Shown one piece after another: positions 3,439-60,737 of a DNA stretch of 64,000 nucleotides. The stretch lies in NCBI GenBank assembly GCA_016213925.1, contig JACQZH010000021.1:6295-70294 (forward strand), given 5' to 3'. A program made the position numbers and the translations under genes. Position 1 is the stretch's first letter; every line of letters begins with the position of its first letter. Source of the stretch: Candidatus Omnitrophota bacterium. Its GTDB lineage: Bacteria > Omnitrophota > Gorgyraeia > B26-G9. The notes beneath the pieces are model-generated. The model made no database searches, was not told the DNA's origin, and was given only the letters and a program-made list of their open reading frames with translations.

Positions 3439-4044
3439 ATGAAAGCAGGGTTTACATTACTTGAATTGTTGATAGGTATTGCGATATTTGCTGTTGTGGC
3501 AGCTTCTGTGTATACTAGCTTCTATCTTGGTGTTAAAACGTGGAGACATGAAGAAACCCGTGATGAAGGACTTCAACAGGCGATGCTTGCTTTGGAAACA
3601 ATGGCGTTACGGCTAAGGTGCGCGTTTGTTAGCGCTGATAATGAAAAAATTAAATTTAAAGGCAGCAACGAACAGATTGATTTCTTCACGGTTAATGCTG
3701 AAGGTGATATAGAGAATTTGATATTTTTTCTGGAACCCAGGGATAGCGGGCAAGGCTATTCTCTACGGCAGTCTAGTAAAAAATATATATATCTTAATGA
3801 TGAAAATCCTCCGGAAATTGAAGTGATAAACAGTTTTGTAAAGAACTTTAAGGTCAGTTATTTTAATGCTAAAGAACAACTTTGGCTTGAGGATTGGCCT
3901 GAAGAATTAAAGCTGCCGGAGCAGGTTAAGATAGAAGTTGATTTCGAAAAAAATAATTTGGAAAGTTCTTCTCTCCGGCTTGAAAAATATGTAAATATCC
4001 TGGTGACAAATGAGATAATATTGCCTAAATATGAAACGCTGTAA
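3439..4044 (+). CDS. Pseudopilin (GspJ/PilW-like) with prepilin N-terminal methylation motif
   Basis: The N-terminus MKAG|FTLLELLIGIAIFAVV has G at -1, E at +5 and a hydrophobic helix. Confidence 0.55.
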   Translation: MKAGFTLLELLIGIAIFAVVAASVYTSFYLGVKTWRHEETRDEGLQQAMLALETMALRLRCAFVSADNEKIKFKGSNEQIDFFTVNAEGDIENLIFFLEPRDSGQGYSLRQSSKKYIYLNDENPPEIEVINSFVKNFKVSYFNAKEQLWLEDWPEELKLPEQVKIEVDFEKNNLESSSLRLEKYVNILVTNEIILPKYETL

Positions 4045-4873
4045 TAAAGATAATAAAGGAATTATTTTAGTCATTGTTTTATGGGTATTGTTCTTTTTAT
4101 CTGTTACGGCGCTTACATTGGGTATGCAAAACAGATTAAATATCCGTTTGCAGAGCCTTACCAATGAAAAAGCAAGAATGCTGTATTTATCCAGGGAGAG
4201 TGTCAACAGGATTATAATATTACTTGCTAAGGACGATCCTAGTTTTGACGCGTTTAGCGAAGAATGGAGTACCGGTGTTTCTTTGCAAAACGAAGAAGGG
4301 ATAACTTTGTGCGAAGTGAATGATGAGGATAGATGTTTGAATATAAATACTGCGCCGGTTGAATTAATAGAAAGAATCAAGTTGATTTTTCCGGGGCTTG
4401 GGGAAGAAGAGATTAAGCTTATTGCTAATCTGCGGCCGTTTAATGTGAAGAAAGAGTTATTGGATTTAGCTCAAATAGACAGAGAGATTTTTTACGGAAA
4501 TCCTTCTGAGGGAAAAATCGGTATGCAGGATATGATTACTGTGTTTTCCGACGGCAAAATAAATATAAATACCGCGCCTAAAGAAGTTTTAATGATACTG
4601 CCGAATATGAATGAGGGGGTTGTCGATACGATTTTGAGTCATCGCCAAGTAACGCCTTTTAACAGTAATGAAACGCTTTCAGAAGGATTATCTTTATTGG
4701 GTTTGACACCGGAACAGGTAGGTTCGCTGATTAAAATTTGCAAAGTGCAATCTTCGATATTTAGTGTTAAGGTAAACAGCGCTTCCAAGCGGAAACATGT
4801 TTCTAAAGGATTAGAACTGATATTCAAGCGAGTTGAGAATAAATTTAACGTTTTGCTGGCAAAGGAGAATTGA
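4031..4873 (+). CDS. GspK-like minor pseudopilin (HhH-containing)
   Basis: The N-terminus KGIILVIVLWVLFFLS is GspK-like. There are two helix-hairpin-helix-like segments (NINTAPVELIERI and ININTAPKEVLMILP). Confidence 0.5.
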   Translation: MKRCNKDNKGIILVIVLWVLFFLSVTALTLGMQNRLNIRLQSLTNEKARMLYLSRESVNRIIILLAKDDPSFDAFSEEWSTGVSLQNEEGITLCEVNDEDRCLNINTAPVELIERIKLIFPGLGEEEIKLIANLRPFNVKKELLDLAQIDREIFYGNPSEGKIGMQDMITVFSDGKININTAPKEVLMILPNMNEGVVDTILSHRQVTPFNSNETLSEGLSLLGLTPEQVGSLIKICKVQSSIFSVKVNSASKRKHVSKGLELIFKRVENKFNVLLAKEN

Positions 4874-6222
4874 AATTGCTGAAAAATGTTATCTATATAA
4901 CAAGAAAAAAAATACGCTTTGCGCAATTTGGCATCAGAAGGGAAGCGACTAAGCTGCTTAAGGATAAAAGCATTGCTTTGAACGCGGATAAACCTCTTGG
5001 CGAGGTTCTTAAGGAAATTACGCGCCGGGAACGCCTTGACAGGAAAGATTTCATTAGTTGTTTTTTTCGTTATCAGGTCAGCCTACGTTTTTTTACTTTT
5101 CCTTCCAATAATTTAGAAGAGATTTCTAAAATGGTTAGTTATGAAGCGGCAGAACTTTTACCGCTGAAATCCGAAGAGGTGGTAACCCGGTATCTTGTCT
5201 TAAATAAACAGAAAAGCGGTTATTCCGACACTTTAATTGTTGTTGTGCATAAGGATGAAGTTTTGAAATTTTCGAGTTATTTCCAAGGTACTGGATGCAG
5301 TATTAATATATTGTCCCTAAGTAGTCTAGCGTTATTCAGCTGTATTAAAAAAGTTGTTGCTGAAAAAGACAAATCATTCTTGGAAAAAAACATCATGCTG
5401 GTTCATTTTGAGGACGGCACGGTAGAAATAATCGCGGTTAATAAAGGAAGGCTTGTTTTAAGCAGAGGTTTTTTACTGCATAGCGTCAAAAATTTTTACC
5501 AGATGCTTATCGGAGAAATCAGGCAGAATATAGAATTGTTTTTTACTGAATCAAAAGAACGGAGCCTTGATCAAATTATAATCAGCGGCTTTGCTGATTT
5601 GCAGGGTATTGAAGGCGTTCTGAAGGGGCATTTTAATGTCCCTATATTAATCAATAAATGCGTTGATATAGCATTAGGACTTGCGCTTTGCTCGGAACAA
5701 TCAGTTAACCTATTGAGTAATGAAGCAATCAGTTTGCATTTAAGAAAAAATTTCAGCAAAAAAATCATGTCGATGTTTTTGCTGCTTTTTTTTAACTTAA
5801 TTCTTTTAGGGGCGGCATTTTCCCTCATTTTAAATAATAAAAATGATTATTTGAACCGCATTGAACAAAAACTTGCTCTGCTTAAACCTGAGGCGCAATC
5901 GGTGCAGAATAAATTGGCTCAACTGAACATGATGCAAAAACAGCTGCATTCGCAAATTTTGATCCTTGACGCGATTACTGAGCTGATCAATTCTGCTTCT
6001 TCCTCCTCGATAATGCTTAATATGCTTACGATTAACGAAGAAGGGATACTAATTATGCGCGGCCAGGCAAACAATCTTCAGGAAGTGCTGGATTTTATTA
6101 AGGGGCTAGAACTATCGCCGTATTTCCAGAATACGCATTTAAGTTATTCGAGTCTTAGAAAGCTTATGCAAAAGGAAGTGCTGGATTTTGAAATACAGGC
6201 GGAATTAAATAAAGAGCATTAA
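4870..6222 (+). CDS. GspL-like / PilM-PilN fusion (cytoplasmic actin-like domain + TM + periplasmic coiled-coil domain)
   Basis: 450 aa. A ~300-aa soluble N-terminal part is followed by one TM helix (MSMFLLLFFNLILLGAAFSLIL), then a coiled coil and a small C-terminal domain. It follows the GspJ/K-like genes. Confidence 0.4.
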   Translation: MKLLKNVIYITRKKIRFAQFGIRREATKLLKDKSIALNADKPLGEVLKEITRRERLDRKDFISCFFRYQVSLRFFTFPSNNLEEISKMVSYEAAELLPLKSEEVVTRYLVLNKQKSGYSDTLIVVVHKDEVLKFSSYFQGTGCSINILSLSSLALFSCIKKVVAEKDKSFLEKNIMLVHFEDGTVEIIAVNKGRLVLSRGFLLHSVKNFYQMLIGEIRQNIELFFTESKERSLDQIIISGFADLQGIEGVLKGHFNVPILINKCVDIALGLALCSEQSVNLLSNEAISLHLRKNFSKKIMSMFLLLFFNLILLGAAFSLILNNKNDYLNRIEQKLALLKPEAQSVQNKLAQLNMMQKQLHSQILILDAITELINSASSSSIMLNMLTINEEGILIMRGQANNLQEVLDFIKGLELSPYFQNTHLSYSSLRKLMQKEVLDFEIQAELNKEH

Positions 6223-22734: not shown

Positions 22735-25700
22735 ATGTATTTTAAAAAGTTAGAACTCTACGGATTTAAATCTTTTGTAGATAAGACAACGCTTATTTTT
22801 GAACCAGGCGTTACTGCCATTGTCGGGCCTAACGGTACAGGCAAAAGCAATATTTCAGACGCGATAAAATGGGTGCTTGGCGAACAAAGCGCGAAATCAA
22901 TGCGCGGTTCAAAAATGGAGGACGTGATTTTTAACGGTACTGAAGCACGGCCTCCGGTGAATATGGCGGAAGTTTCGCTTATCCTTTCCAATGAAGAAAA
23001 ACGTTTAGCGATTGATTATGATGAAGTAACAATTACCCGCAGGCTTTACCGTTCCGGTGAAAGCGAATATCTTTTGAATAAAACCTTGGTGAGGCTTAAA
23101 GATATTCAGGAACTTCTTATGGGTACGGGAATAGGAACGGAGTCATATTCTCTCTTAGAACAAGGCCGCATTGACGCGATTTTAAGTTCAAAGCCCGAAG
23201 AACGCAGGGTTGTTTTTGAAGAAGCAAGCGGGATCACCCGTTTTAAAAAGAAAAAAGCGGAAGCGCTTAGAAGGCTGGAAGCTACAGAAGAAAATTTACT
23301 GCGCGTTAATGATATAATTACCGAAGTTAACCGCCAATTAGGATCGATCCAGCGCCAGGTAAATAAAGCCAGGCGTTATCAGGAACATTATGAGCAGCTT
23401 AAAATCCTCGATACGCAATATACCTACCGCGAATATAATGTCGTAAAAACAGAAAAAGAAAAATTTGAAGAGTGTGAAAATGCTTTTCGCAATGAATTGA
23501 ATTCCCTGGAGTCAGAACTTGCCGGATTGGCTCAAGCGTTTGACGAAATAAAAAGCGCTCTTTCTAAGGTTGAAGGGGATTATAGCCAGCTTAATGCCAA
23601 GGTTTTAAATGCCAGTACTCAAATCGAAAAAAATACAGACCGGATTCATTTGAATAATGAACGCATAGAGGAATTTGGCCAGCGCGCGGAAAATTTGACC
23701 GCGGATATTGATAATTCTAATGCTAAAATCAAAGAACTGGAAGAGCAATTTGCGCAGTTAAAAATCCGCTTGAATTCATTCCTTGAAGAAAAAAATAATA
23801 AGGTCCACAATTTAAATCTTAAACAAGCGAGTATTTGCGAGATTGAAAAGCTGATTAAGCAAATACATGAATCGATTGAATCAACCCGGCTGACGGCGGT
23901 AAAGCTTCTTTCCGAGCACGCGCAGATTAAAAATGAACTGGCAAAACTTTCCGCTAATATTCATAACGCGCATTCACGCCTGCTTCGGTTGCATCAGGAA
24001 AAAGAAAAGACGGAAAATGAGCTTTCGGCAATTAATGCCAAGATAGAAGAAAAAATGTCGCTTCTGGATGAGCTTAAGGGCAGGATAGATACGGAGGAAC
24101 TGCAGGTTAGTCAATTACGTTCTGATTATGATGCTTTAAATCAGGAGATCCGCAACCTGGAATCAGAGTATCAAAAAAGCAAGCAGTCTTTGATAGCCGG
24201 CCAGTCACAGCTTGAAGTGCTTGAAAAATTGATTAAAACATACGAAGGTTTTTCAAGTAACGTGAAAAATTTTATGCTTAAAAAAGAAACTCATCCGCAT
24301 CTTTTCGAGGGAGTTTATGATGTTCTTGTAAATCTGATTGATGTTACCCCAGGATTTGAAATGTGCGTAGAAAATGCGCTGGGGGAATATTTGCAGGCAG
24401 TTGTCGTTGATAATAAACAAACCGCGTATAAGCTGACAAATTTTTTAAAAGAGGAGCAGATAGGGCGGATAAGATTTATCGCGCTAGATTCTATTCCTTT
24501 GGGCCAAGAAACTATCATGCCTCAAATTGCAGAGAGAAGAATCACGGATGTTATTAAGCCGCAATTTGGTTATGAAAAGCTTATAAATTATCTTTTACGG
24601 GATACTTTTATTATCGGGGAAAAAAATCAAAACACGGAGAAAACAATTCCTGCGCAAGAAAATACCGGCTGTGAAAGTTTAACGCAATCCCTTAGCCAGG
24701 TAAAAGAAGGTAGAATGTTTTCTTATACGATAGCAAATGCCGAATCAGTGGAAGTTATTGGAGATTTTAATAATTGGGTAAGCAGCCTTAAAAGCAGGAT
24801 GGAACGGGCGCAGGCGGGAAATTGGCAAAAATTTATAGCTCTTAACCCGGGGGTTTACAGGTATAAGTTTATCGTAGATGGAAGATGGGTGCTTGATCCG
24901 GCTAATCCGCGTTCGCAGATAGACGATACAGGGAACGTGAATTCAGTAATTGAAGTGCTTGAATATCCGGTTCAGGCCAAGCCTCAAAGCATGATTTCCG
25001 ATTCTCAGGGGGATGCGGATTTCTCAGGCAGATTAATATCTCAAGATGGTCAAATCGATACATTGACTGAAGTTATCAGCAGCCCTGTCAAAGAGCATGG
25101 CGCCGGGTTGATATTGCAGAAAACCCAGATGAAGATGCTTCAGGAAGAATGCGTGTGTTTAAAAGAAGCGATTAAGTACTATGAAGCTAAGGAGCAGGAA
25201 AAACGGCAGCAGCTTGTCGGGATGGAACGTGAATTGACTCAACTTAATGATATTTTGCATAAAGAGAAAATCGTATTTGCAAATAAGGATTCAGAGCGTT
25301 CAAATATTGAAGCGGCAAAGAAGAAACTTGATGATGAAATAGCTATACTGAACCTGGAAATAGATGAAACAACGCTTGACGAGCAGGAACTGATGGCAAA
25401 AGAAATCGAAAAGAAGAAACGGCTTGAAGAAATAGATGAGCTGACAAGAGTCAATGAAAAGAAAATGGCCCAAGGCCAGGAGCTGATAGCTATAAAGACT
25501 CAAGAACGTGAAGAGCTGCTTGTTGTTATCGCCGAAATGAAGACGGAATTTTCTCTTTTAAATGAACAGGAAGCTGCCCTGAACACTAATTTTTCCATGC
25601 TCGATCAAAGCATTGAAAGTCAGCGGGCTAACGCGAAAGAATATTTAAGGCAGAAAGAAGATTTATTAAAGCGCAGTGAAGAGCTTTCTATTCAAAAAGA

Positions 25701-26745
25701 AGAGCTAAAACAGAAAACAACGGTTCTCGAAACTGAAAAACAGCAGATGGAGGAGGCATTACAGGGAATTTCCTTGCAGCGCGGTAAATTACTTGCTGAA
25801 TTTGAGGATGTCCAGAATCAGGTAAAAATAAAAGAAAACAGGATTAATGCTATAAAAAATAACATGCGCGATGTTGATATTAAGAAGGTAGAACTTAATT
25901 TTAAAATAGAATCACTGGTTAATTCGCTTAAACAAGCGTATAAGATTGATTTGCTTACGCTTACCTTGGAGCCTTCTGAAGGGGTTGACTGGAATAGCCA
26001 AAAACTGCAGATCGAGGAATTGAAAATAAAAGTTGAGCGGCTTGGCGCGGTTAATCTTGCCGCGGTCGAAGAAGAGGAAGAACTTAAGGAGAGAGCGGAA
26101 TTTCTTAACAGTCAAAAAGATGATTTAATATCGGCAAAGCAATCCCTGATGCAGGCAATCCAAAAAATAAACCGCACGACAAAAGAGTTATTCCTTGAAA
26201 CGTTTGAAAAGTCAAAAGCGACTTTTAAAGAATATTTTAAACTGCTTTTCGGAGGAGGAGATGCGCAGCTGCATCTTATCGAAGATAAGGATATCTTGGA
26301 AAGCGGTATCGATATTATAGTACGGCCTCCGGGAAAACGCCTGCAGAGTATTACATTGCTTTCAGGAGGGGAAAAAACACTTACGGCTATCGCGCTATTA
26401 TTCGCGATTTATAAAATAAAGCCTACGCCGTTCTGCGTGTTAGATGAAATGGATGCGCCGCTTGATGAATCGAATATTGACCGTTTTACCCGGGTACTGC
26501 AGGAGTTTCTCAAGGATTCGCAGTTTATCATTATTACTCATAATAAAAAGACAATCGGTATGGCTGACGTGATGTATGGAGTAACAATGGAAGAGGCGGG
26601 TATTTCCAAAATCGTATCAGTGAAATTCAGCGATTATAAAGAAAATTCCCAGGATAATTCCCAAGGTCTGGGTTACGAGCAAACGCCTCAAAAAGGTTTT
26701 GCAGAGACTGAAGTAACAATGCCGGAGAAGGTACTGGCGCATTGA
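22735..26745 (+). CDS. smc: Chromosome segregation protein SMC with ~150-aa CBM48-like insertion in hinge
   Basis: The N-terminal Walker A is GPNGTGKSN and the C-terminal signature is LSGGEKTLTAIALLFAI with Walker B CVLDEMDAPLD, joined by long coiled coils. 1336 aa versus ~1180 typical. Confidence 0.85.
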   Translation: MYFKKLELYGFKSFVDKTTLIFEPGVTAIVGPNGTGKSNISDAIKWVLGEQSAKSMRGSKMEDVIFNGTEARPPVNMAEVSLILSNEEKRLAIDYDEVTITRRLYRSGESEYLLNKTLVRLKDIQELLMGTGIGTESYSLLEQGRIDAILSSKPEERRVVFEEASGITRFKKKKAEALRRLEATEENLLRVNDIITEVNRQLGSIQRQVNKARRYQEHYEQLKILDTQYTYREYNVVKTEKEKFEECENAFRNELNSLESELAGLAQAFDEIKSALSKVEGDYSQLNAKVLNASTQIEKNTDRIHLNNERIEEFGQRAENLTADIDNSNAKIKELEEQFAQLKIRLNSFLEEKNNKVHNLNLKQASICEIEKLIKQIHESIESTRLTAVKLLSEHAQIKNELAKLSANIHNAHSRLLRLHQEKEKTENELSAINAKIEEKMSLLDELKGRIDTEELQVSQLRSDYDALNQEIRNLESEYQKSKQSLIAGQSQLEVLEKLIKTYEGFSSNVKNFMLKKETHPHLFEGVYDVLVNLIDVTPGFEMCVENALGEYLQAVVVDNKQTAYKLTNFLKEEQIGRIRFIALDSIPLGQETIMPQIAERRITDVIKPQFGYEKLINYLLRDTFIIGEKNQNTEKTIPAQENTGCESLTQSLSQVKEGRMFSYTIANAESVEVIGDFNNWVSSLKSRMERAQAGNWQKFIALNPGVYRYKFIVDGRWVLDPANPRSQIDDTGNVNSVIEVLEYPVQAKPQSMISDSQGDADFSGRLISQDGQIDTLTEVISSPVKEHGAGLILQKTQMKMLQEECVCLKEAIKYYEAKEQEKRQQLVGMERELTQLNDILHKEKIVFANKDSERSNIEAAKKKLDDEIAILNLEIDETTLDEQELMAKEIEKKKRLEEIDELTRVNEKKMAQGQELIAIKTQEREELLVVIAEMKTEFSLLNEQEAALNTNFSMLDQSIESQRANAKEYLRQKEDLLKRSEELSIQKEELKQKTTVLETEKQQMEEALQGISLQRGKLLAEFEDVQNQVKIKENRINAIKNNMRDVDIKKVELNFKIESLVNSLKQAYKIDLLTLTLEPSEGVDWNSQKLQIEELKIKVERLGAVNLAAVEEEEELKERAEFLNSQKDDLISAKQSLMQAIQKINRTTKELFLETFEKSKATFKEYFKLLFGGGDAQLHLIEDKDILESGIDIIVRPPGKRLQSITLLSGGEKTLTAIALLFAIYKIKPTPFCVLDEMDAPLDESNIDRFTRVLQEFLKDSQFIIITHNKKTIGMADVMYGVTMEEAGISKIVSVKFSDYKENSQDNSQGLGYEQTPQKGFAETEVTMPEKVLAH

Positions 26746-27009: not shown

Positions 27010-28119
27010 TTAAATTAATTCTTTGCTGAACATGCAGACTCTGTTGCGGCCGATATTCTTTGCCGCGTAAAGGGCTTTATCAGCGGCAGAAATAAGGCCT
27101 TCGGCAGTTGAAGAATCTTGCGGGAAGCTTGAGACGCCGATGCTTATTGTCGCGTGTTTTGGCGTGTCCGATTCGGGTGTTTGAAACGGAAAGGCTGCCG
27201 CGAAGCTGCGGATTCTTTCTGCGGAAGAGTAGGCTTTTTCCTTAAAGGTTTCAGGAAGGATAATTACGAATTCTTCTCCTCCGTATCGGGCGACAAGATC
27301 TACCTCCCTGCTTGAATTTTGAAAAATTTCCGCTAATTGCTTCAGGAGTTTATCTCCTGCAGGATGGCCGTATGTATCATTGAATTTTTTGAAAAAATCT
27401 ATGTCAATCATAAGCAGGCTTAACTGCCGGTTAAAGCGGCTTGCACGCTTTATTTCTTCGCGCAGCTGATGCTGAAAATATCCGTAATTCCAGAGATTTG
27501 TCAGGTGGTCAGTGTATGAAAGGATCAGGGTTTTTTCAAATTCCTGCGAATTTTCTATTGCTAATCCGGCCTGGTTTGCGAACATGGTAAGTTTCCAGAT
27601 ATCAGATTCGGTAATCTTATTTTTTGAAAAAAAGTTATCAACAAGCATGATACCGACAACACGGTTTTTTGCCAGCAAAGGCACGGTTACAAAATATTCC
27701 ATATTGAATAATGAGATTACCGGGTCGTTGCTTGAAAGCAATTTCTTGGAATCAGTTCTGCGGTCAAAATCCGCGTATGAGGATATGAGTTGATCCATGG
27801 TTTTTTGTGTGTTTTCAATATATTTCCAGATTTCATGAGCATTTTCTCCGGAATCTGGGCCGATTCCCATTCTCCCTTCAAGCTGGTTTTTCTTTTCGTT
27901 TACAAGAAATAACATGGCGCGGTTAAAACCAAGCCCTTCATTGGCTGTAACGCTGGTAAGGATGATGTATAAGATTTCGTCCAGGCGCAAAGTAGAGCGC
28001 ATGGCAATGCCTATCTCATAGAGCATTAGCAGCTCAGAGTGCTGTTTTTCATCAGGTGTGTGTACTTTATTTTGGTGGAGCATGCTTCTTATTTTTAAAC
28101 ACTTTCCTATTTTTGTCAA
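27010..28119 (-). CDS. GAF-domain diguanylate cyclase (GGDEF)
   Basis: The C-terminus carries RYGGEEFVIILPE (GGEEF active site). The N-terminal ~180 aa are GAF-like. Confidence 0.75.
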   Translation of the reverse strand: MTKIGKCLKIRSMLHQNKVHTPDEKQHSELLMLYEIGIAMRSTLRLDEILYIILTSVTANEGLGFNRAMLFLVNEKKNQLEGRMGIGPDSGENAHEIWKYIENTQKTMDQLISSYADFDRRTDSKKLLSSNDPVISLFNMEYFVTVPLLAKNRVVGIMLVDNFFSKNKITESDIWKLTMFANQAGLAIENSQEFEKTLILSYTDHLTNLWNYGYFQHQLREEIKRASRFNRQLSLLMIDIDFFKKFNDTYGHPAGDKLLKQLAEIFQNSSREVDLVARYGGEEFVIILPETFKEKAYSSAERIRSFAAAFPFQTPESDTPKHATISIGVSSFPQDSSTAEGLISAADKALYAAKNIGRNRVCMFSKELI

Positions 28120-29419: not shown

Positions 29420-30346
29420 ATGATAACCTATGCCAGGCGATATGGTTTTAGCGGTTTAATTAAAAATTTAATTACAGCTTTAAGGCTTCCTTTTATAAGT
29501 GTCAGCCAGATAGCATTTTTATTTGGGTCTTTGATATCCTGGCCGCAATTTAATCCGGGGTATTTTATTCTAGGCAGCGGTATTGTTATTTTTACGCATT
29601 TAGGGGCAAATCTTTTCAATGATTATGCGGATTCTTTAAGCGGAGTGGATTGGCAGGATACTAACGCATACGGCTTTTTCGGCGGTTCAAAACTTATTCA
29701 GCAGAAAATATTTTCTGAAAGGTTTTATTTGGTCACGGCAGTATGTTTTTTTTCCCTAGCCTTAGCCGGGGTTTTATTCTTGAGCGTGCTCATGAAAAGC
29801 TTTATCGTGCTCGGAAGCTTTTTATTTGTTTGTGTTATCGGCGCTGGTTATTCGCTTGGGCCTTTAGAATTTTCTTATAAGAGGATAGGCGAATTGGTTA
29901 TTTTTCTGCTTTTTGGCCCGGCGCTGGTTATGGGTGGATATTTTATACAAACCGGTGTTTTTCCTTCCTGGGAGGGGTTTTACTTATCGTTACCGCTGGG
30001 ATTTGCGGCAATTGCTGTGTTATTTGCTAATGAAATTCCCGATTTCCCGCATGATTTGGCAAAGAATAAGCTTAACTGGGTTAGCTTTTGGGGGCAGGAG
30101 AAAGCGTTTATAGGGTATTATTTCATAATTGCATGTATTTTTTGTTCTGTGGTTTTTAATGTTATTGCCGGAAACCTTAGAGTATGGACACTCTCCTGTT
30201 TTCTCGGTATCGTCCCGGTTTTAAAGGCAGGAAGGATATTAAAATATTTTTATGCCGATAAACAAAAGTGCAGGGATTCGTCAAAGCTGACAATAGGTGT
30301 ATATATTTATAGCGGGATCATCCTAATCATGGATAAATTAATATGA
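29420..30346 (+). CDS. UbiA-family aromatic prenyltransferase (MenA-like)
   Basis: About 8 TM helices and NDYADSLSGVD (NDxxDxxxD). Confidence 0.65.
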   Translation: MITYARRYGFSGLIKNLITALRLPFISVSQIAFLFGSLISWPQFNPGYFILGSGIVIFTHLGANLFNDYADSLSGVDWQDTNAYGFFGGSKLIQQKIFSERFYLVTAVCFFSLALAGVLFLSVLMKSFIVLGSFLFVCVIGAGYSLGPLEFSYKRIGELVIFLLFGPALVMGGYFIQTGVFPSWEGFYLSLPLGFAAIAVLFANEIPDFPHDLAKNKLNWVSFWGQEKAFIGYYFIIACIFCSVVFNVIAGNLRVWTLSCFLGIVPVLKAGRILKYFYADKQKCRDSSKLTIGVYIYSGIILIMDKLI

Positions 30347-31461
30347 AAAAAGTTATAATTATCGGAGGAGGATTTGCCGGGCTGAAAGCGGCGCAGGTTT
30401 TATGCAAAAGGTTTAAAAATATAAAAACGCATGTTATAGATAAAAACAAAAATTCGATATTCTTACCGTTGCTTCCGGATGTTATCGGCCGTGAAATTAA
30501 TCACAAATATTTAGAATATCCATTGGACCAGGCAGCAAGAGTGCATGGTTTTAATTTTATTAACCGCGAAGTTAGCGGGATTGACCTTGAAAAAAAGAAA
30601 GTAATTTGCCATGATAAAAACTTTGATTATGATTTTCTGGTTATTGCCGCAGGCAGCAGGACTAATTTTTACGGGCAGGAACAAATAAAAAAAACAGCAT
30701 TTACATTGGATGATACTGCTGACGCTCTGGCAATCCTTGAGGCATTAAAAGCGAAATCTTTTGAAAATATTGTTATCTGCGGCGCAGGCTATACCGGGGT
30801 TGAAATAGCGGCCAACATAAAGGCTTTTTTATTAAAACACAGAATCAGGAAAAAGATTATTATCGCGGAAAAATTCCAGGGTATTTTATCCGGCATGCCT
30901 GGGGGATTGAGAAAGTATGTTTTGGACAAGCTAGGGCAGATGGATATTCCGGTTTCTCTAAATACTTCTATTCGGACAGCCTCTGAAACAGAAGTCGTGC
31001 TTTCCGACGGAAAGGTTATTGAAAAAGCTATGCTTATTTGGGCGGCTGGAGTTAAATGCGCTGATTTTTTAAGCGGGACTAACCTAGAGAAAAATGCGCA
31101 GGAAAGAATTAAAGTAGACAGGTTCTTATGTTTTAAAGAAGGCTGTTTTGCTATTGGTGATTCAGCGCTGGTTTTACGCGGGCAAAAGGCTTTGAGAATG
31201 TCAGTGCAGTTTGCGGTTACTCAAGGGGCAAGCGCGGCTTTGAATATCGGAAGAATAAATAACGCAAAGAAAGAGAAGATATATAAGCCTGTGGACCTTG
31301 GATATATTATTCCAATGGCCGGGGCAAATGCCTGCGGAAATATACTGGGCATACAGGCAACCGGAGCAATGCCTGCTTTAATGCATTATATTATGTGTAT
31401 AGTACGCAGTTGGGAGACGATAAGCAAATTGGGAATAATCAGGTCGTTGCTGGTGAATTAA
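30343..31461 (+). CDS. NDH-2-like FAD-dependent NADH:quinone oxidoreductase family protein
   Basis: KKVIIIGGGFAGL dinucleotide fold, NSIFLPLLPDV, a second GAGYTGVE fold and FAIGD. There is a 4-bp overlap with the UbiA gene. Confidence 0.55.
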   Translation: MKKVIIIGGGFAGLKAAQVLCKRFKNIKTHVIDKNKNSIFLPLLPDVIGREINHKYLEYPLDQAARVHGFNFINREVSGIDLEKKKVICHDKNFDYDFLVIAAGSRTNFYGQEQIKKTAFTLDDTADALAILEALKAKSFENIVICGAGYTGVEIAANIKAFLLKHRIRKKIIIAEKFQGILSGMPGGLRKYVLDKLGQMDIPVSLNTSIRTASETEVVLSDGKVIEKAMLIWAAGVKCADFLSGTNLEKNAQERIKVDRFLCFKEGCFAIGDSALVLRGQKALRMSVQFAVTQGASAALNIGRINNAKKEKIYKPVDLGYIIPMAGANACGNILGIQATGAMPALMHYIMCIVRSWETISKLGIIRSLLVN

Positions 31462-35195: not shown

Positions 35196-35535
35196 ATTAA
35201 TGATATACTATTAGGAATAAGATTTTTCTAAAATCGTAATTAGAAAATAGTTTGTAAGTGCAGACTGCTCATTCTCGGCATTGTTGTTATGCCTTTGGGA
35301 TGGTTTGGAATATAAGAAGGGTTTTCGAACTTGCCAAGACGTAGTACTGGTTTAAATATATATTTTTAAGACTACAATAAAATAGTTTAAACAAAGATGT
35401 AATTTTTTATATATTTGCCTAAAATTTGTTTTAAATTAATAATATTGCAAAAAGTGAAGTGAAATTATAGAATAATTAGCGTTGCCCGTAAGTAATAAAT
35501 ATAGAAAGTGAAAAAAATATTTTTTGGGAGAGCAA

Positions 35536-36447
35536 ATGAAAGCAGCTTTTTTTGGGCAGTTCTTATTGGATAAAGGCGTAATAAATACTAAACAGTTTGC
35601 CGATGCATCAGACTTGCAGAATAAGGTTAATTTAAAGATCGGCCAGCTAGTTTTAGAGAAAAAACTTTTGACTCCGTTGCAAGTAAAAATTATCCTTGAT
35701 CATCAAAAAAGAAATGATGTTTATTTTGGGGAGGCAGCACAGCAGCTTGGGTTTCTTACGCTTGAACAGGTCCAGATGCTTTTAAAGGAGCAGGAAGAAC
35801 GGCATATCTTTATTGGAGAGGCATTGATTCGTTGCGGGTATATTACGCAAGAGCAATTAAAAGAGGCATTGGTGGAATTTAATGCCGAGCAAAAAGAAAA
35901 TGAAATGCTCAGCCCCAAGGCGTATCCAGAAAGATTTGAAAAGGAGAAGATATTTATAGAGCAGTTTGTGGTTTATACGATTAAGTTGTTAAGCCGGATG
36001 GGCGGGATAATCGCTAAATATGACCATTATGAGGAAGTGAAAAAAAGCATAGCGGTTTTACCGGTAGCGGTTGAAATGCATTTCCGTGGGGATATGAGTA
36101 ATCAGCTTAACCGTTATTTGCTTATGACCTCGAAAGAAACAGCGCAAGCTATCGCAGTTAATTTTTTTGAAGGAAGCGGTATGGCTATTGAAGGCAGTGT
36201 TATTATTGATGCTCTTTCAGAACTGGTGAACATTATATGTGGACAGGTTTGCGGCCGCTTGTGGGAATTTGGAAAACTGAGCGTAACATTATCTCAAAAG
36301 GTTATGATCGATGCCGATCAGATGCAATTAAGCTATGTTTTAAAAGAAAATCAGAAAGCAGTATACTTATCAATGGTAACTTCCGATGGGAAAAAACTAG
36401 GCCTATTACTGGTCTTTTTTTTGTCCCTGGATAAGAATAGCGTATAA
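35536..36447 (+). CDS. Tandem MshEN (T2SSE_N-type c-di-GMP-binding) modules fused to CheX/CheC-like domain
   Basis: Four 24-aa (R/K)LGxxLLxxG(L/V)Ixxxx(L/V)xxxLxxQ-like motifs are arranged 24-5-24 twice: FFGQFLLDKGVI..., KIGQLVLEKKLLTPLQVKIILDHQ, YFGEAAQQLGFLTLEQVQMLLKEQ and FIGEALIRCGYITQEQLKEALVEF. The C-terminus has ELVNIICGQ (ExxNxxxG). Confidence 0.5.
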   Translation: MKAAFFGQFLLDKGVINTKQFADASDLQNKVNLKIGQLVLEKKLLTPLQVKIILDHQKRNDVYFGEAAQQLGFLTLEQVQMLLKEQEERHIFIGEALIRCGYITQEQLKEALVEFNAEQKENEMLSPKAYPERFEKEKIFIEQFVVYTIKLLSRMGGIIAKYDHYEEVKKSIAVLPVAVEMHFRGDMSNQLNRYLLMTSKETAQAIAVNFFEGSGMAIEGSVIIDALSELVNIICGQVCGRLWEFGKLSVTLSQKVMIDADQMQLSYVLKENQKAVYLSMVTSDGKKLGLLLVFFLSLDKNSV

Positions 36448-36480
36448 TCCCAAAAATAAAGACTAATAAAAAGGTTTATT

Positions 36481-36885
36481 ATGAGCGGGCTAGCCACTTT
36501 AAATCGGAACAAAGGATTTACTTTTGTTGAGGTGATGGTAGTTTTATTGATTCTTGCCGGTATTATCGCAGGATTCTCAAGCTTAAGCGGAGCTAATTTT
36601 ACGCTTTTGGAACAGGTGGCTAATTCGAATATCGCGATTAATGACGCCCGTTCGGTTTTAGAAAATATGCGTAATATTGACCCGTTTACCGCGGCTAACC
36701 TGACCGCTCAATATCCGGATGGAGCCGCTGTTGCCGGATTTAATAATCTTGAGCAAGAAACAGTGAGAGTTAATTATGTGGATCTTACCGCTGATCCGAT
36801 ACAGGTTACGATTACCGTATCGTGGGAAGGCAAAGGCGGCGCGGCATTAACCGAAGAGGTAACTACTCTTTTGACGGCACGCTGA
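36481..36885 (+). CDS. Type IV (pseudo)pilin with prepilin N-terminal methylation domain
   Basis: NKG|FTFVEVMVVLLILAGIIAG (G-1, E+5). 134 aa. Confidence 0.6.
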   Translation: MSGLATLNRNKGFTFVEVMVVLLILAGIIAGFSSLSGANFTLLEQVANSNIAINDARSVLENMRNIDPFTAANLTAQYPDGAAVAGFNNLEQETVRVNYVDLTADPIQVTITVSWEGKGGAALTEEVTTLLTAR

Positions 36886-36912
36886 TGGAGTTGGCATTGA
36901 AAGAGAAAAAAT

Positions 36913-37737
36913 ATGAAAAAAATATTTAAATCAAAAAAAGGCGTTTCTTTGCTTGAGGCCCTAATTGTGTGTGTTGTTTCTGTTTTTATTATATTGACGC
37001 TTCTGGCATTGTTATCTTCGGCGCGCAGCACATGGGCGATTTCCGATGTAAAATCAGACCTTTATATTAACGCGCGCAGGGCAATGTATGAGATGTTCAA
37101 TGAGCTTATTGAGGCTTCCAGCGGGGATACGGAATCATTTGTGTTCGTTGATCCTTTGAACGGAGAATATGCTCAAGGGTTATGGTTTGCTTCAGCCCGC
37201 GGGAATGAAGCGGTAGCCGGAGAAGATGGAAGCTCGGCTAATAATTATTTTCATCTTGATGCTAGTAATGTGGCGGCATGGCGTTCTCTGGTAGTTTACT
37301 GCGCGTATGAGACAGCGGACGGGATAAAACAGCTGCGCAGGTATGTGGATTACGGCCCAAATCTTACTTTTTATAATGGAGTAAATATTTTTCCGTTGAC
37401 TGTTCAATCCGTAACCGCAGCCAGCCTGAACTTGCTTACCGCTGACGCGGCGACAGTTATTTCTATTGACCGCGCTCAAGGCAGGGTGCTGGCAAATTAT
37501 ATCAGCAATGAAGACGCGAATAATAATAATGCCCTTGACGCCAATGAGAATGACGGAATAGATAATGATCCGGTTGATAATGAAGACGGCGCATTAAATT
37601 ACGGGGCGAATTTTACTAAAAATGTCGGTAGTGTTGATATTGTGCTTTTTTTGAGCAAGGAAGCGGTGAAACTAAAAGAGCAAGGCAGGTTTCTTAGTAC
37701 TACGCTGCGCAACAGGGTAAAATTCAGGCAGCCTTGA
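36913..37737 (+). CDS. Minor pseudopilin with acidic Ca-binding-like loop
   Basis: KKG|VSLLEALIVCVVSV prepilin motif, then NEDANNNNALDANENDGIDNDPVDNEDG. Confidence 0.5.
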   Translation: MKKIFKSKKGVSLLEALIVCVVSVFIILTLLALLSSARSTWAISDVKSDLYINARRAMYEMFNELIEASSGDTESFVFVDPLNGEYAQGLWFASARGNEAVAGEDGSSANNYFHLDASNVAAWRSLVVYCAYETADGIKQLRRYVDYGPNLTFYNGVNIFPLTVQSVTAASLNLLTADAATVISIDRAQGRVLANYISNEDANNNNALDANENDGIDNDPVDNEDGALNYGANFTKNVGSVDIVLFLSKEAVKLKEQGRFLSTTLRNRVKFRQP

Positions 37738-37764
37738 TGCCGCATTAAAAGAGGGAGAATAATT

Positions 37765-38829
37765 ATGCTGAAGAATAAAAAGGGTGTTTTACTGGTTGCT
37801 GTATATCTGGTGGTTGGGGTGCTTCTTGGTATACTTGGAGTTTGTGTTTATAAAAATATTTATGAGGCAAAAGTAAACATTGGGTATAAGCATTATATGA
37901 TGGCGTTTTATTGCGCTGAAGCGGCATTGGATAAGGGAATTGCCAACCTTCCTTCAAGCACCAGCGGTCAAACAAATGTTAGCTTGAATGCTGTAGGAGG
38001 TACCCAACAGGGGCAGTATACTTATACAATATCTACGGTAGAAGCAGGAAAGCGCTGGCGGGTGGAAAGCTGGGGATATTCGCCCAGCCAGGCAGATGCC
38101 GTAGTTACCCAGCATCTTGAGGCTTATGTTTCAAAAAAGGACTTGCCGGACTCTTTCTGGGATAACGCGATTTATACAGCCGGTAATGTGAGAGTAAACG
38201 GCAGTGCGTATGATATTGATGGTGATATTATTTATGGAGGCTCGCTTTTACCTGCGGTTCTTGATCCGGCTAAATTTTCCGGAACAAGCACAAATGATGC
38301 CAGTATTTCGCCTTTGATCAAGCTTGATTTTGAGACAATGAGAACAACTGCTGCCAGCCAGATCAAGGCTGACGGAAGCGATAATGTGTATACGTTTATG
38401 GAAATAGCAGCAGGGAATCCGCCCTTTCCAACTAGCTTCTGGTTTGACCAGACTGACCCTGACCCGACAAAATGGGTGCCTAATGTTGTGTATGTGGAAA
38501 CAGACCTTGTGCTTAACGGCAATATCGGCACGATCGGGGGTTTTTTTCTTGTGGTCGGAGATGTTACGACAAACCCTTCATCAACATCTGAGACTGTAAT
38601 CAATGGGAGAGGACAGATCGACGGTTGTATTTACAGTACAGGGCAGTTTCGCGTAAACGGCGGCGGCGGTGCTGACTTGAATGTTCTAGGCGGGGTTTGG
38701 GCAGGGACTGACGGAGTGCGTATAAACGGAAGTGTTCACCTTGGATACAATGAGGATTATATGAACGCTATCCGTGATGTGATCCAGCCTGGTTCGACTG
38801 TGCAGGTGATTTCCTGGCGGAGATTATAA
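37765..38829 (+). CDS. PilX-like minor pseudopilin
   Basis: The N-terminus MLKNKKG|VLLVAVYLVVGVLLG is a hydrophobic helix lacking E+5. 354 aa. It is last in the cluster. Confidence 0.4.
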   Translation: MLKNKKGVLLVAVYLVVGVLLGILGVCVYKNIYEAKVNIGYKHYMMAFYCAEAALDKGIANLPSSTSGQTNVSLNAVGGTQQGQYTYTISTVEAGKRWRVESWGYSPSQADAVVTQHLEAYVSKKDLPDSFWDNAIYTAGNVRVNGSAYDIDGDIIYGGSLLPAVLDPAKFSGTSTNDASISPLIKLDFETMRTTAASQIKADGSDNVYTFMEIAAGNPPFPTSFWFDQTDPDPTKWVPNVVYVETDLVLNGNIGTIGGFFLVVGDVTTNPSSTSETVINGRGQIDGCIYSTGQFRVNGGGGADLNVLGGVWAGTDGVRINGSVHLGYNEDYMNAIRDVIQPGSTVQVISWRRL

Positions 38830-47450: not shown

Positions 47451-47583
47451 GCAAATTAAAGCAAGAATCCTAACAGGGGTATGTTATAATACAAATAAAG
47501 AAAGTAGGGGGTAATTTTTAGTTGTTTTAAAAAAATCTTGTTTGATTAGCTGGCCGGATGACAACAAAAAAGTGAGAGGAAAA

Positions 47584-48010
47584 ATGGAATCAGAAACAAA
47601 AAAGGTAATTTTGGTGGTTGAGGATGATCAGCTAAGCGCTACGGTGACAGCGGATTTTTTAAAAGCTAATGGCTACAATGTAATGCCATGTTTTGGCGGT
47701 AAGATGGCATTGGAAGCATTGCAGGAGTTTTCTCCTGACCTGGTATTGCTGGATATTCTTATGCCGGAAATTGACGGATATGAGGTTTGTAAAATAATAA
47801 GAAGCAGAAAATCCAGCCAGCTGCTCCCTGGATAAAATATTTGATAAATTTATACAAGTGCAGACGAAAAAGTCAAGGCTTGGCAGGGGGTTGGGGCTTA
47901 CATTTTGCAGGATGGTAGTTGAATCGCATAATGGCAAAATCTGGGCGGAAAGCGAGCTGGGAAAAGGGAGTATTTTTTTTCTTGCTTTACCTGCGAAAAG
48001 AAAAAAATAA
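47584..48010 (+). pseudogene. Remnant of hybrid response-regulator/histidine-kinase gene (internal deletion plus frameshift)
   Basis: The receiver domain KVILVVEDDQ...DLVLLDILMPEIDGYEVCKIIRSRKSSQ stops after ~80 aa. The next frame encodes only the final ~57 aa of a HATPase_c domain (SLDKIFDKFIQVQTKKSRLGRGLGLTFCRMVVESHNGKIWAESELGKGSIFF). Confidence 0.5.
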
Positions 48011-60044: not shown

Positions 60045-60737
60045 GTGAAAGAAAAGATATTAATCGTCGAGGATGAAAAAGATATAGTCAAAATGCTTGA
60101 TTATAACTTAAAAAAAGAGGGGTTTAGGCCGCTGGCTGTCTGCGACGGAGAACATGCCCTGGATTTAGCAACCAGGGAACAGCCGGGCCTGGTTATTTTA
60201 GATTTAATGTTACCGGGTATGGATGGTTTAGAGGTTTGCAAGAATCTTAAAAAGGACGCTAAGACCGCGTCTATTCCGGTCATTATGCTTACCGCGAAAA
60301 GCCAGGAATCGGATAAGGTGATAGGGCTTGAGCTGGGAGCGGATGATTATGTAACAAAACCGTTTAGCCCAAGAGAATTGATTGCCAGGATAAAAGCGGT
60401 ATTGCGGCGCGTGAAAGAAAAAGATAAACTGCCGGAGGTATTGAAAACAGGGGATTTAATTATTGATTTATCTAAGATTACAGCGTCTGTTAAAGGTAAA
60501 CCGGTTGAGCTTACGGCAAAGGAATTTGAGCTTCTAAAGGCGCTGATAAAAGCAAAGGGCAGGGTTTTGTCTCGGGATTACCTGCTTGATAACATCTGGG
60601 GTTTTGAACATTCGATGGGGATTCAGACGCGTACTGTGGATGTTCATATCAGGACATTGCGTAAGAAGTTGAAAAATGAGTCAAAACGGATTGTCACAGT
60701 AAAAAATTACGGATACAGATTCGACGATGAAGATTAG
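60045..60737 (+). CDS. phoB: OmpR/PhoB-family response regulator
   Basis: GTG start. The receiver has ...LVILDLMLPGMDGLEV...IPVIMLTA...GADDYVTKPFSPRELIARIKAVLRR, very close to PhoB, plus a winged-helix output domain. Confidence 0.65.
   Translation: MKEKILIVEDEKDIVKMLDYNLKKEGFRPLAVCDGEHALDLATREQPGLVILDLMLPGMDGLEVCKNLKKDAKTASIPVIMLTAKSQESDKVIGLELGADDYVTKPFSPRELIARIKAVLRRVKEKDKLPEVLKTGDLIIDLSKITASVKGKPVELTAKEFELLKALIKAKGRVLSRDYLLDNIWGFEHSMGIQTRTVDVHIRTLRKKLKNESKRIVTVKNYGYRFDDED

Follow-up and report, generated by a model that had tools for sequence, protein, structure and literature searches.

What does a protein do that joins MshEN motifs, of the kind that binds cyclic di-GMP (c-di-GMP) in MshE and PilF, to a CheX domain, and that is encoded directly ahead of pilin-like genes? 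This question is raised by four closely packed open reading frames (ORFs; genes 1 to 4), all on the plus strand, at positions 35536–38829 of a 64,000-nt stretch of contig JACQZH010000021.1 from a Candidatus Omnitrophota bacterium (assembly GCA_016213925.1; this whole stretch is referred to as the window). The first of them, gene 1 (35536..36447, +), is an Omnitrophota member of the (MshEN_N)2-CheX family, which is widespread, catalogued and experimentally uncharacterised. Its product is probably a c-di-GMP-modulated phosphatase of a CheY-like receiver, with an adjacency to the pilin genes that is incidental or only indirectly functional.

The product of gene 1 is 303 aa long, not 304 aa as given in an earlier note made from the letters of this DNA, and is 100% identical to HY810_03850, a hypothetical protein of Candidatus Omnitrophica bacterium at NCBI that belongs to a metagenome-assembled genome (MAG). 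Because the ATG of gene 1 is preceded by a GGGAGAG Shine-Dalgarno sequence, the alternative TTG start at 35524 is unlikely. Besides GGGAGAG, the AT-rich intergenic stretch 5′ of the gene (35196..35535, +) holds several sigma-70-like matches, which are pattern matches only. The (MshEN_N)2-CheX family profile matches the product colinearly over its full length, and its AlphaFold2 model has a predicted local distance difference test score (pLDDT) of 80.2 and a predicted template modelling score (pTM) of 0.73. Weak Pfam matches to FumaraseC_C, DUF4388, nSTAND_NTPase4 and CbiN lie below their cutoffs and were dismissed as helical or transmembrane noise.

The N-terminal 120 residues of the protein are four helix-turn-helix MshEN motifs, and the four 24-residue repeats that the earlier note had recognised there were all retrieved. 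Motif 1 (FFGQFLLDKGVINTKQFADASDLQ; aa 5-28; 35548..35619, +), which had been described as the weaker repeat, is indeed the weakest copy, with Phe at position 1 and Ser at position 21. Motif 2 (KIGQLVLEKKLLTPLQVKIILDHQ; aa 34-57; 35635..35706, +) aligns to motif I of VcMshE and carries Lys at position 10 in place of the turn Gly, while motif 3 (YFGEAAQQLGFLTLEQVQMLLKEQ; aa 63-86; 35722..35793, +) corresponds in alignments to VcMshE motif II and the GSPII domains of PilF. Motif 4 (FIGEALIRCGYITQEQLKEALVEF; aa 92-115; 35809..35880, +) has Phe, not Gln, at position 24. Of the 11 positions that the relaxed motif of Wang 2016 constrains, each 24-mer fits 9–10, and in 5000 shuffled versions of the protein (mean 24, maximum 31) the summed score of the four motifs in a strict 29-residue period (37) was never equalled.

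All spacers between the motifs are 5 residues long, resulting in an unbroken 4 x (24+5) array that spans aa 5-115. The earlier note had arranged the repeats as two 24-5-24 units; the 24-residue motifs and 5-residue spacers stand, but the units are not set apart, as the spacer between them also measures 5 residues. Three overlapping 53-residue frames are therefore possible. The middle frame (aa 34-86, motifs 2 and 3) lies nearest to VcMshE, with a BLOSUM62 score of 65 versus 50 and 49 for the outer frames, and all three score far above off-register alignments (-18 or lower).

Searches with hidden Markov models (HMMs) and a structure prediction, both of which the earlier note had proposed as checks, agree with this assignment. 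The NCBIfam model NF053729 (cyclic di-GMP-binding domain, MshE-related) matches gene 1 with 57.1 bits (cutoff 38, E 1.2e-15), and the N-terminus has secondary matches in EpsG and NfrB, within their MshEN regions. A profile built from 31 family members over the N-terminal 122 residues matches Thermus PilF (E 1.2e-15) and the crystal structure of MshE with c-di-GMP (5HTL, E 6.2e-8), and in the profile search motifs 2 and 3 of gene 1 align residue for residue with motifs I and II of MshE. The AlphaFold2 model places eight helices in the N-terminal part, one short and one long per motif, and the predicted array fits a helical-bundle fold like that of 5HTL.

In MshEN motifs, the key ligand residues are R1, L2, G3, L17, L21 and Q24, and mutation of the Gly at position 3 abolishes c-di-GMP binding (PMC5013675). 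The Leu, Gly and Gln positions on which the earlier note had relied do align in gene 1, where every motif has G3 and all but motif 4 have Q24. When the positions are scored as R/K1, hydrophobic 2, G3, hydrophobic 17, hydrophobic 21 and Q24, motif 2 holds six of the six residues, motif 3 five, and motifs 1 and 4 four each, so that 11 of 12 fall within the middle frame. Position 1 carries Phe or Tyr for Arg/Lys in motifs 1, 3 and 4. Two such substitutions recur family-wide, namely Phe for Arg at position 1 of motif 1 and Phe or Tyr for Gln at position 24 of motif 4 (96%). We infer that c-di-GMP binds the array of gene 1, most likely in the frame of motifs 2 and 3 and possibly at a second site.

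The C-terminal 165 residues of gene 1 are a complete CheX domain of alpha/beta fold (aa 132-295; 35929..36420, +) in which the catalytic Asp, Glu and Asn are kept. The CheC/CheX catalytic signature D225-x3-E229-x2-N232 (DALSELVN; 36208..36231, +) occurs once, as in CheX, versus twice in CheC; it coincides with the ELVNIICGQ helix from which the earlier note had deduced a CheX-like C-terminus. The Pfam CheX model PF13690 gives a marginal match (28.9 bits, cutoff 27). In a Foldseek search with the gene 1 model, the top matches were the CheX proteins of Desulfovibrio, Thermotoga, Vibrio and Borrelia (E 2.6e-10 to 1e-7, target template modelling score ~0.8), and the family profile matched CheX chains of the PDB at E 2e-14 to 1e-9, with the E-F-x-N-I-x-x-G-N helix of the family falling on the catalytic ExxN helix of these structures. 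The assignment to CheX is thus stronger from structure and profile than from the marginal Pfam score. In the extended motif D/S-x3-E-x2-N-x22-P, the final Pro is replaced by Gln in gene 1 (S/Q over two columns) and is kept in 64-81% of the family.

The fusion of these two modules, which the earlier note had contrasted with the attachment of MshEN to an ATPase, was already on record. Supplementary Table 4 of Wang et al. 2016 (Nat Commun 7:12481, PMC5013675) lists (MshEN_N)2 - CheX in Deltaproteobacteria and Firmicutes, with Geobacter lovleyi Glov_2742 as example, and NCBI names the relatives from Desulfuromonas versatilis and Natronobacillus 'chemotaxis protein CheX'. Our literature search for a characterised MshEN-CheX protein returned only this 2016 catalogue entry and unrelated PilZ/CheX work. 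Like the Glov_2742 type (ACD96455), gene 1 has four 24-residue motifs ahead of a single CheX domain in ~290-300 aa; unlike it, gene 1 stems from Candidatus Omnitrophica, lacks an adjacent receiver (REC) gene and lies beside pilin genes. With gene 1 the family is extended to the Omnitrophota, in an unusual neighbourhood.

The size of the family was assessed with a profile that was run exhaustively against a set of 1.84 billion cluster representatives, which carry no genomic context. At E<=1e-30, 574 representatives of 50%-identity clusters were found, and of the best 150, almost every one is matched colinearly over its full length, most of them measuring 275-300 aa. A word-indexed protein search gave 9 relatives of gene 1, and 21 with the profile; in genome and metagenome contigs, the close relatives suggested by pattern matches of a three-sequence alignment were in no case confirmed by tblastn. 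Among 142 representatives, G3 is conserved in 96-99% and Q24 of motifs 1-3 in 95-100%, the positions that contact c-di-GMP in MshE being the best conserved of the family. The catalytic Glu and Asn occur together in 123 of the 142, and the Asp in 78%. The family thus comprises hundreds of 50%-identity clusters without an experimental study in the literature searched, and its members point to a specific substrate.

This substrate emerges from the ten longer family members, which were scanned against Pfam, and from the nine relatives of which the genomic context could be read. A fused REC domain is present in nine of the ten longer members, N-terminally in four (P0085, P0101, P0121 and P0132) and C-terminally in five (P0033, P0038, P0042, P0056 and P0105), the tenth being a PAS-HisKA-HATPase fusion. 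A REC gene lies directly upstream in six of the nine relatives with context: in Natronobacillus (P0006) it encodes a 128-aa REC protein and overlaps the start of the CheX gene; in P0007, P0281 and Desulfuromonas versatilis (P0280) it is likewise directly upstream; in P0009 it encodes a REC-histidine kinase next to a methyl-accepting chemotaxis protein (MCP); and in P0039 it stands amid MCPs, CheR and further RECs. Four of these six upstream RECs are mutually orthologous 119-aa receivers, forming a two-gene module of receiver and (MshEN)2-CheX gene in that order (L007 979-2229, L011 4583-5867, L013 1950-3280 and L014 4616-5882). Of the remaining relatives, P0004 has no signalling gene among its neighbours, and P0003, the closest relative with context (55% identity), has a GAF histidine kinase downstream.

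Desulfuromonas versatilis (AP024355.1) carries two paralogues of the family (L011 and L012), one of them behind the 119-aa receiver. The second lacks an adjacent receiver and has flagellar genes for hook length and export at a distance of ~3 kb.

As relatives of gene 1 are fused to REC or lie directly downstream of REC genes, a receiver is the expected substrate of its CheX domain, and the 119-aa receiver encoded beside, or a receiver fused to, the (MshEN)2-CheX gene is the substrate predicted for these relatives. The proposed mechanism would start with the binding of c-di-GMP to the helical array, which may alter the packing of the array against the CheX domain or the CheX dimer interface. 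Such altered packing would raise or lower the dephosphorylation of a phosphorylated CheY-like single-domain receiver, and the second messenger would then act on the phosphorelay at the phosphatase step. Both the dephosphorylation of a receiver by the CheX domain of gene 1 and the modulation of that activity are proposed here, with the substrate deduced from these relatives.

Several observations weigh against such a phosphatase. The Omnitrophota subclade to which gene 1 belongs is divergent (24-40% identity to other aligned members), with Lys for the turn Gly in motif 2, Ser where motif 1 should have a hydrophobic ligand residue, and no Pro to complete the CheC motif; the Pfam CheX score barely exceeds its threshold. 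For the (MshEN_N)2-CheX family as a whole, moreover, ligand binding and phosphatase activity are predictions from sequence, and the neighbourhood statistics come from ten loci. In the window, no receiver gene adjoins gene 1: the sole intact REC belongs to an OmpR-type regulator (60045-60737) that lies 24 kb off, beside its own kinase, and a further REC at 47542 is a truncated remnant. Finally, the 33-nt gap and the shared strand of genes 1 and 2 are compatible with one operon.

This last point leads to the pilin genes. According to the earlier note, gene 1 is followed by a pilin and two minor pseudopilins. For gene 2 (36481..36885, +; 134 aa), a prepilin-type minor pilin with the cleavage-site sequence KG|FTFVE, this is supported by HMMs (N_methyl 26.5 bits versus 21.2, TIGR02532 23.2 versus 16.3). 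Gene 3 (36913..37737, +; 274 aa; KKG|VSLLE) is a putative minor pseudopilin that has G-1 and E+5 but stays below the HMM cutoffs. Gene 4 (37765..38829, +; 354 aa) lacks E+5 and is a GspK/PilX/ComZ-like tip pseudopilin with a beta-solenoid domain, its model matching GspK, XcpX and ComZ; its product is identical to HY810_03865, and of its relatives, at least 173 in number, those with a named source come almost exclusively from Omnitrophota. Together, genes 2-4 look like a tip complex of the GspI/J/K or PilV/W/X type with an adhesin-like head. With GspI/J/K, PilV/W/X and Thermus ComZ they share prepilin-type N-termini and a largest member without E+5, as in GspK; they differ from them in a beta-solenoid insert that resembles ice-binding DUF3494 proteins and tapirins, and in the absence of assembly machinery nearby.

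The three-gene cassette was found with conserved order and sizes, at 52-77% identity, in three other Omnitrophota MAGs (L008, L009 and L010; gene 2 52-66%, gene 3 59-68%, gene 4 68-77%), and in none of them does a relative of gene 1 occur within 7 kb of it. The adjacency of gene 1 and the pilin genes is therefore specific to the present lineage. In two of the three MAGs the cassette directly follows genes for UbiA and a pyridine-nucleotide oxidoreductase; in the window these two occupy 29420-31461, so that gene 1 and three further genes stand here between blocks that are contiguous elsewhere. An alignment of the regions upstream of the cassette in the four genomes revealed no conserved element. 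We consequently read genes 2-4 as a separate, conserved GspI/J/K-like minor-pilin (pilus-tip) cassette that came to adjoin gene 1 by lineage-specific rearrangement.

These data bear directly on the strongest alternative, in which gene 1 would serve specifically the adjacent pseudopilins as a c-di-GMP-gated regulator, form one operon with them and control pilus priming or dynamics either directly or via a PilG/PilH-like CheY. Pilus chemosensory systems use CheY-like regulators, and co-transcription of gene 1 and the pilin genes is possible: besides the short gap on the same strand, there is no convincing terminator between genes 1 and 2, where the only hairpin is weak and lies within the coding region (36399-36415); terminator-like sites are no commoner here than in shuffles. 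MshEN modules, furthermore, most often sit on the ATPases of type IV pili and type II secretion systems (T2SS) (PMC5013675). However, the shared strand carries little weight, as nearly all genes of the window are on the plus strand, and a 10/12 promoter-like match at 36421-36448, which overlaps the stop of gene 1 just 5′ of gene 2, is weak evidence for separate transcription. Above all, the cassette persists in the three related MAGs without gene 1, the closest relative with context (P0003) has its histidine kinase gene downstream instead of pilins, and none of the nine relatives with readable context lies next to or near pilin genes. A dedicated pilus regulator is therefore unlikely, and the architecture is not conserved next to pseudopilins, for which the earlier note had suggested looking. 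Of the wider claim in that note, of a c-di-GMP-gated regulator of pilus function and not a motor, the MshEN and CheX domains and the lack of an ATPase were borne out by HMMs, profile searches of the PDB and the structural model, but the link to the pilus is not conserved; there is room for an indirect pilus role of gene 1 through a CheY-like regulator.

A second alternative concerns the CheX domain itself, which could be a non-catalytic binding module, as are the FliM middle domain and some CheC-like proteins. Gene 1 would then encode an adaptor whose partner, a receiver or some other molecule, is sequestered or recruited in dependence on c-di-GMP but not dephosphorylated. The missing Pro of D/S-x3-E-x2-N-x22-P, the marginal Pfam CheX score and the fact that the fold is common to the non-enzymatic FliM would all fit such an adaptor, which we nevertheless regard as quite improbable.

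A slim chance, slightly smaller again, is given to a history in which the c-di-GMP-sensing CheX of this Omnitrophota lineage lost its receiver neighbour and was recruited into the tip-pilin operon, so that c-di-GMP would set pilus priming or dynamics by dephosphorylation of a PilG/PilH-like CheY and not via an ATPase MshEN. If true, the recruited CheX would constitute a second, phosphatase-level route of c-di-GMP control over type IV pili.

Least probable of all is an array that binds no c-di-GMP, as in XpsE, and serves only for dimerisation or as a scaffold in an otherwise ordinary CheX with an extension: such a loss would match the Phe/Tyr residues at position 1 of motifs 1, 3 and 4, the Lys at the turn of motif 2, the Ser at position 21 of motif 1 and the Phe at position 24 of motif 4, and some MshEN homologues indeed do not bind the ligand (Wang 2016, PMC5013675), but it is opposed by the G3 retained in every motif, the Q24 in three, the nearly complete sets of key residues in motifs 2 and 3, an NF053729 score well over the cutoff and a family-wide conservation of ligand positions that scaffolding alone would hardly explain.

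The c-di-GMP-modulated receiver phosphatase favoured here can be set beside systems that are already known. With the MshEN (GSPII) domains of MshE and PilF (5HTL, 8PDK), gene 1 shares the 24-5-24 arrangement, the key Gly, Leu and Gln residues and the predicted helical fold; it differs from them in lacking the MshEN_C subdomain and the ATPase, and in running its four motifs in an unbroken 29-residue period with three possible frames. Its CheX domain is ~15% identical to the CheY-P phosphatases of T. maritima (1XKO) and B. burgdorferi (3HZH, in complex with CheY), from which gene 1 differs by its N-terminal sensor module, the absence of the extended-motif Pro and the absence of che genes in the window. 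In the PlzC/CheX and PlzD/CheX circuits of Vibrio, c-di-GMP signalling and a CheX phosphatase likewise act on the same output, but there c-di-GMP is received by a PilZ protein distinct from CheX, which itself lacks a sensor domain, whereas gene 1 joins receptor and CheX in one polypeptide (PMC12799141, PMC12887009).

No link between c-di-GMP and a chemosensory system would be more direct than a single polypeptide that unites a high-affinity c-di-GMP receptor and a CheY-P phosphatase. Input of c-di-GMP to chemosensory phosphorelays is known mainly via PilZ proteins whose targets are motors, CheR or, indirectly, CheX.

As to the surroundings, Pfam scans covered nearly all ORFs of at least 120 aa in the window that do not overlap a longer one, and its large ORFs are mostly housekeeping genes. 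In agreement with the earlier note, these scans of the large ORFs revealed no secretion ATPase, platform or secretin gene. The GAF-GGDEF cyclase that the note had placed 8 kb upstream lies at 27010..28119 on the minus strand, 7.4 kb from gene 1 (Pfam GGDEF 172.8 bits, plus GAF), and has an intact GGEEF at aa 280 and an RxxD I-site (REVD) at aa 271, from which it follows that c-di-GMP synthesis is encoded in this genome. Rfam, applied to the whole window at gathering thresholds, gave no match and hence no c-di-GMP riboswitch. The 64-kb window yielded neither a cognate CheY gene nor other chemotaxis (che) genes, the OmpR-type regulator and the truncated REC being the only receivers there. The latter is part of a region (47542-48010, +) in which a 97-aa ORF corresponds to REC model positions 1-69 of 111 and a following 50-aa ORF to HATPase_c positions 66-110 of 111; it looks like the deletion-derived remnant of a two-component gene, either a hybrid kinase or a regulator plus kinase.

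The only other pilus genes in the window form a group at 3439-6222 (+), ~30 kb upstream, with an N_methyl pilin, a T2SSK-like pseudopilin and a PilM-like gene, and with no ATPase or secretin nearby. A 1336-aa SMC protein (22735-26745, +) contains an AMPK1_CBM/CBM48 glycogen-binding-type module at aa 662-743, directly after the hinge, which is unusual for a chromosome-condensation protein. Across the whole window (1-64000), the prevalence of plus-strand genes is accompanied by a GC skew above zero in all 2-kb bins (0.05-0.27, mostly ~0.2), and this combination suggests that the window lies within one replichore.

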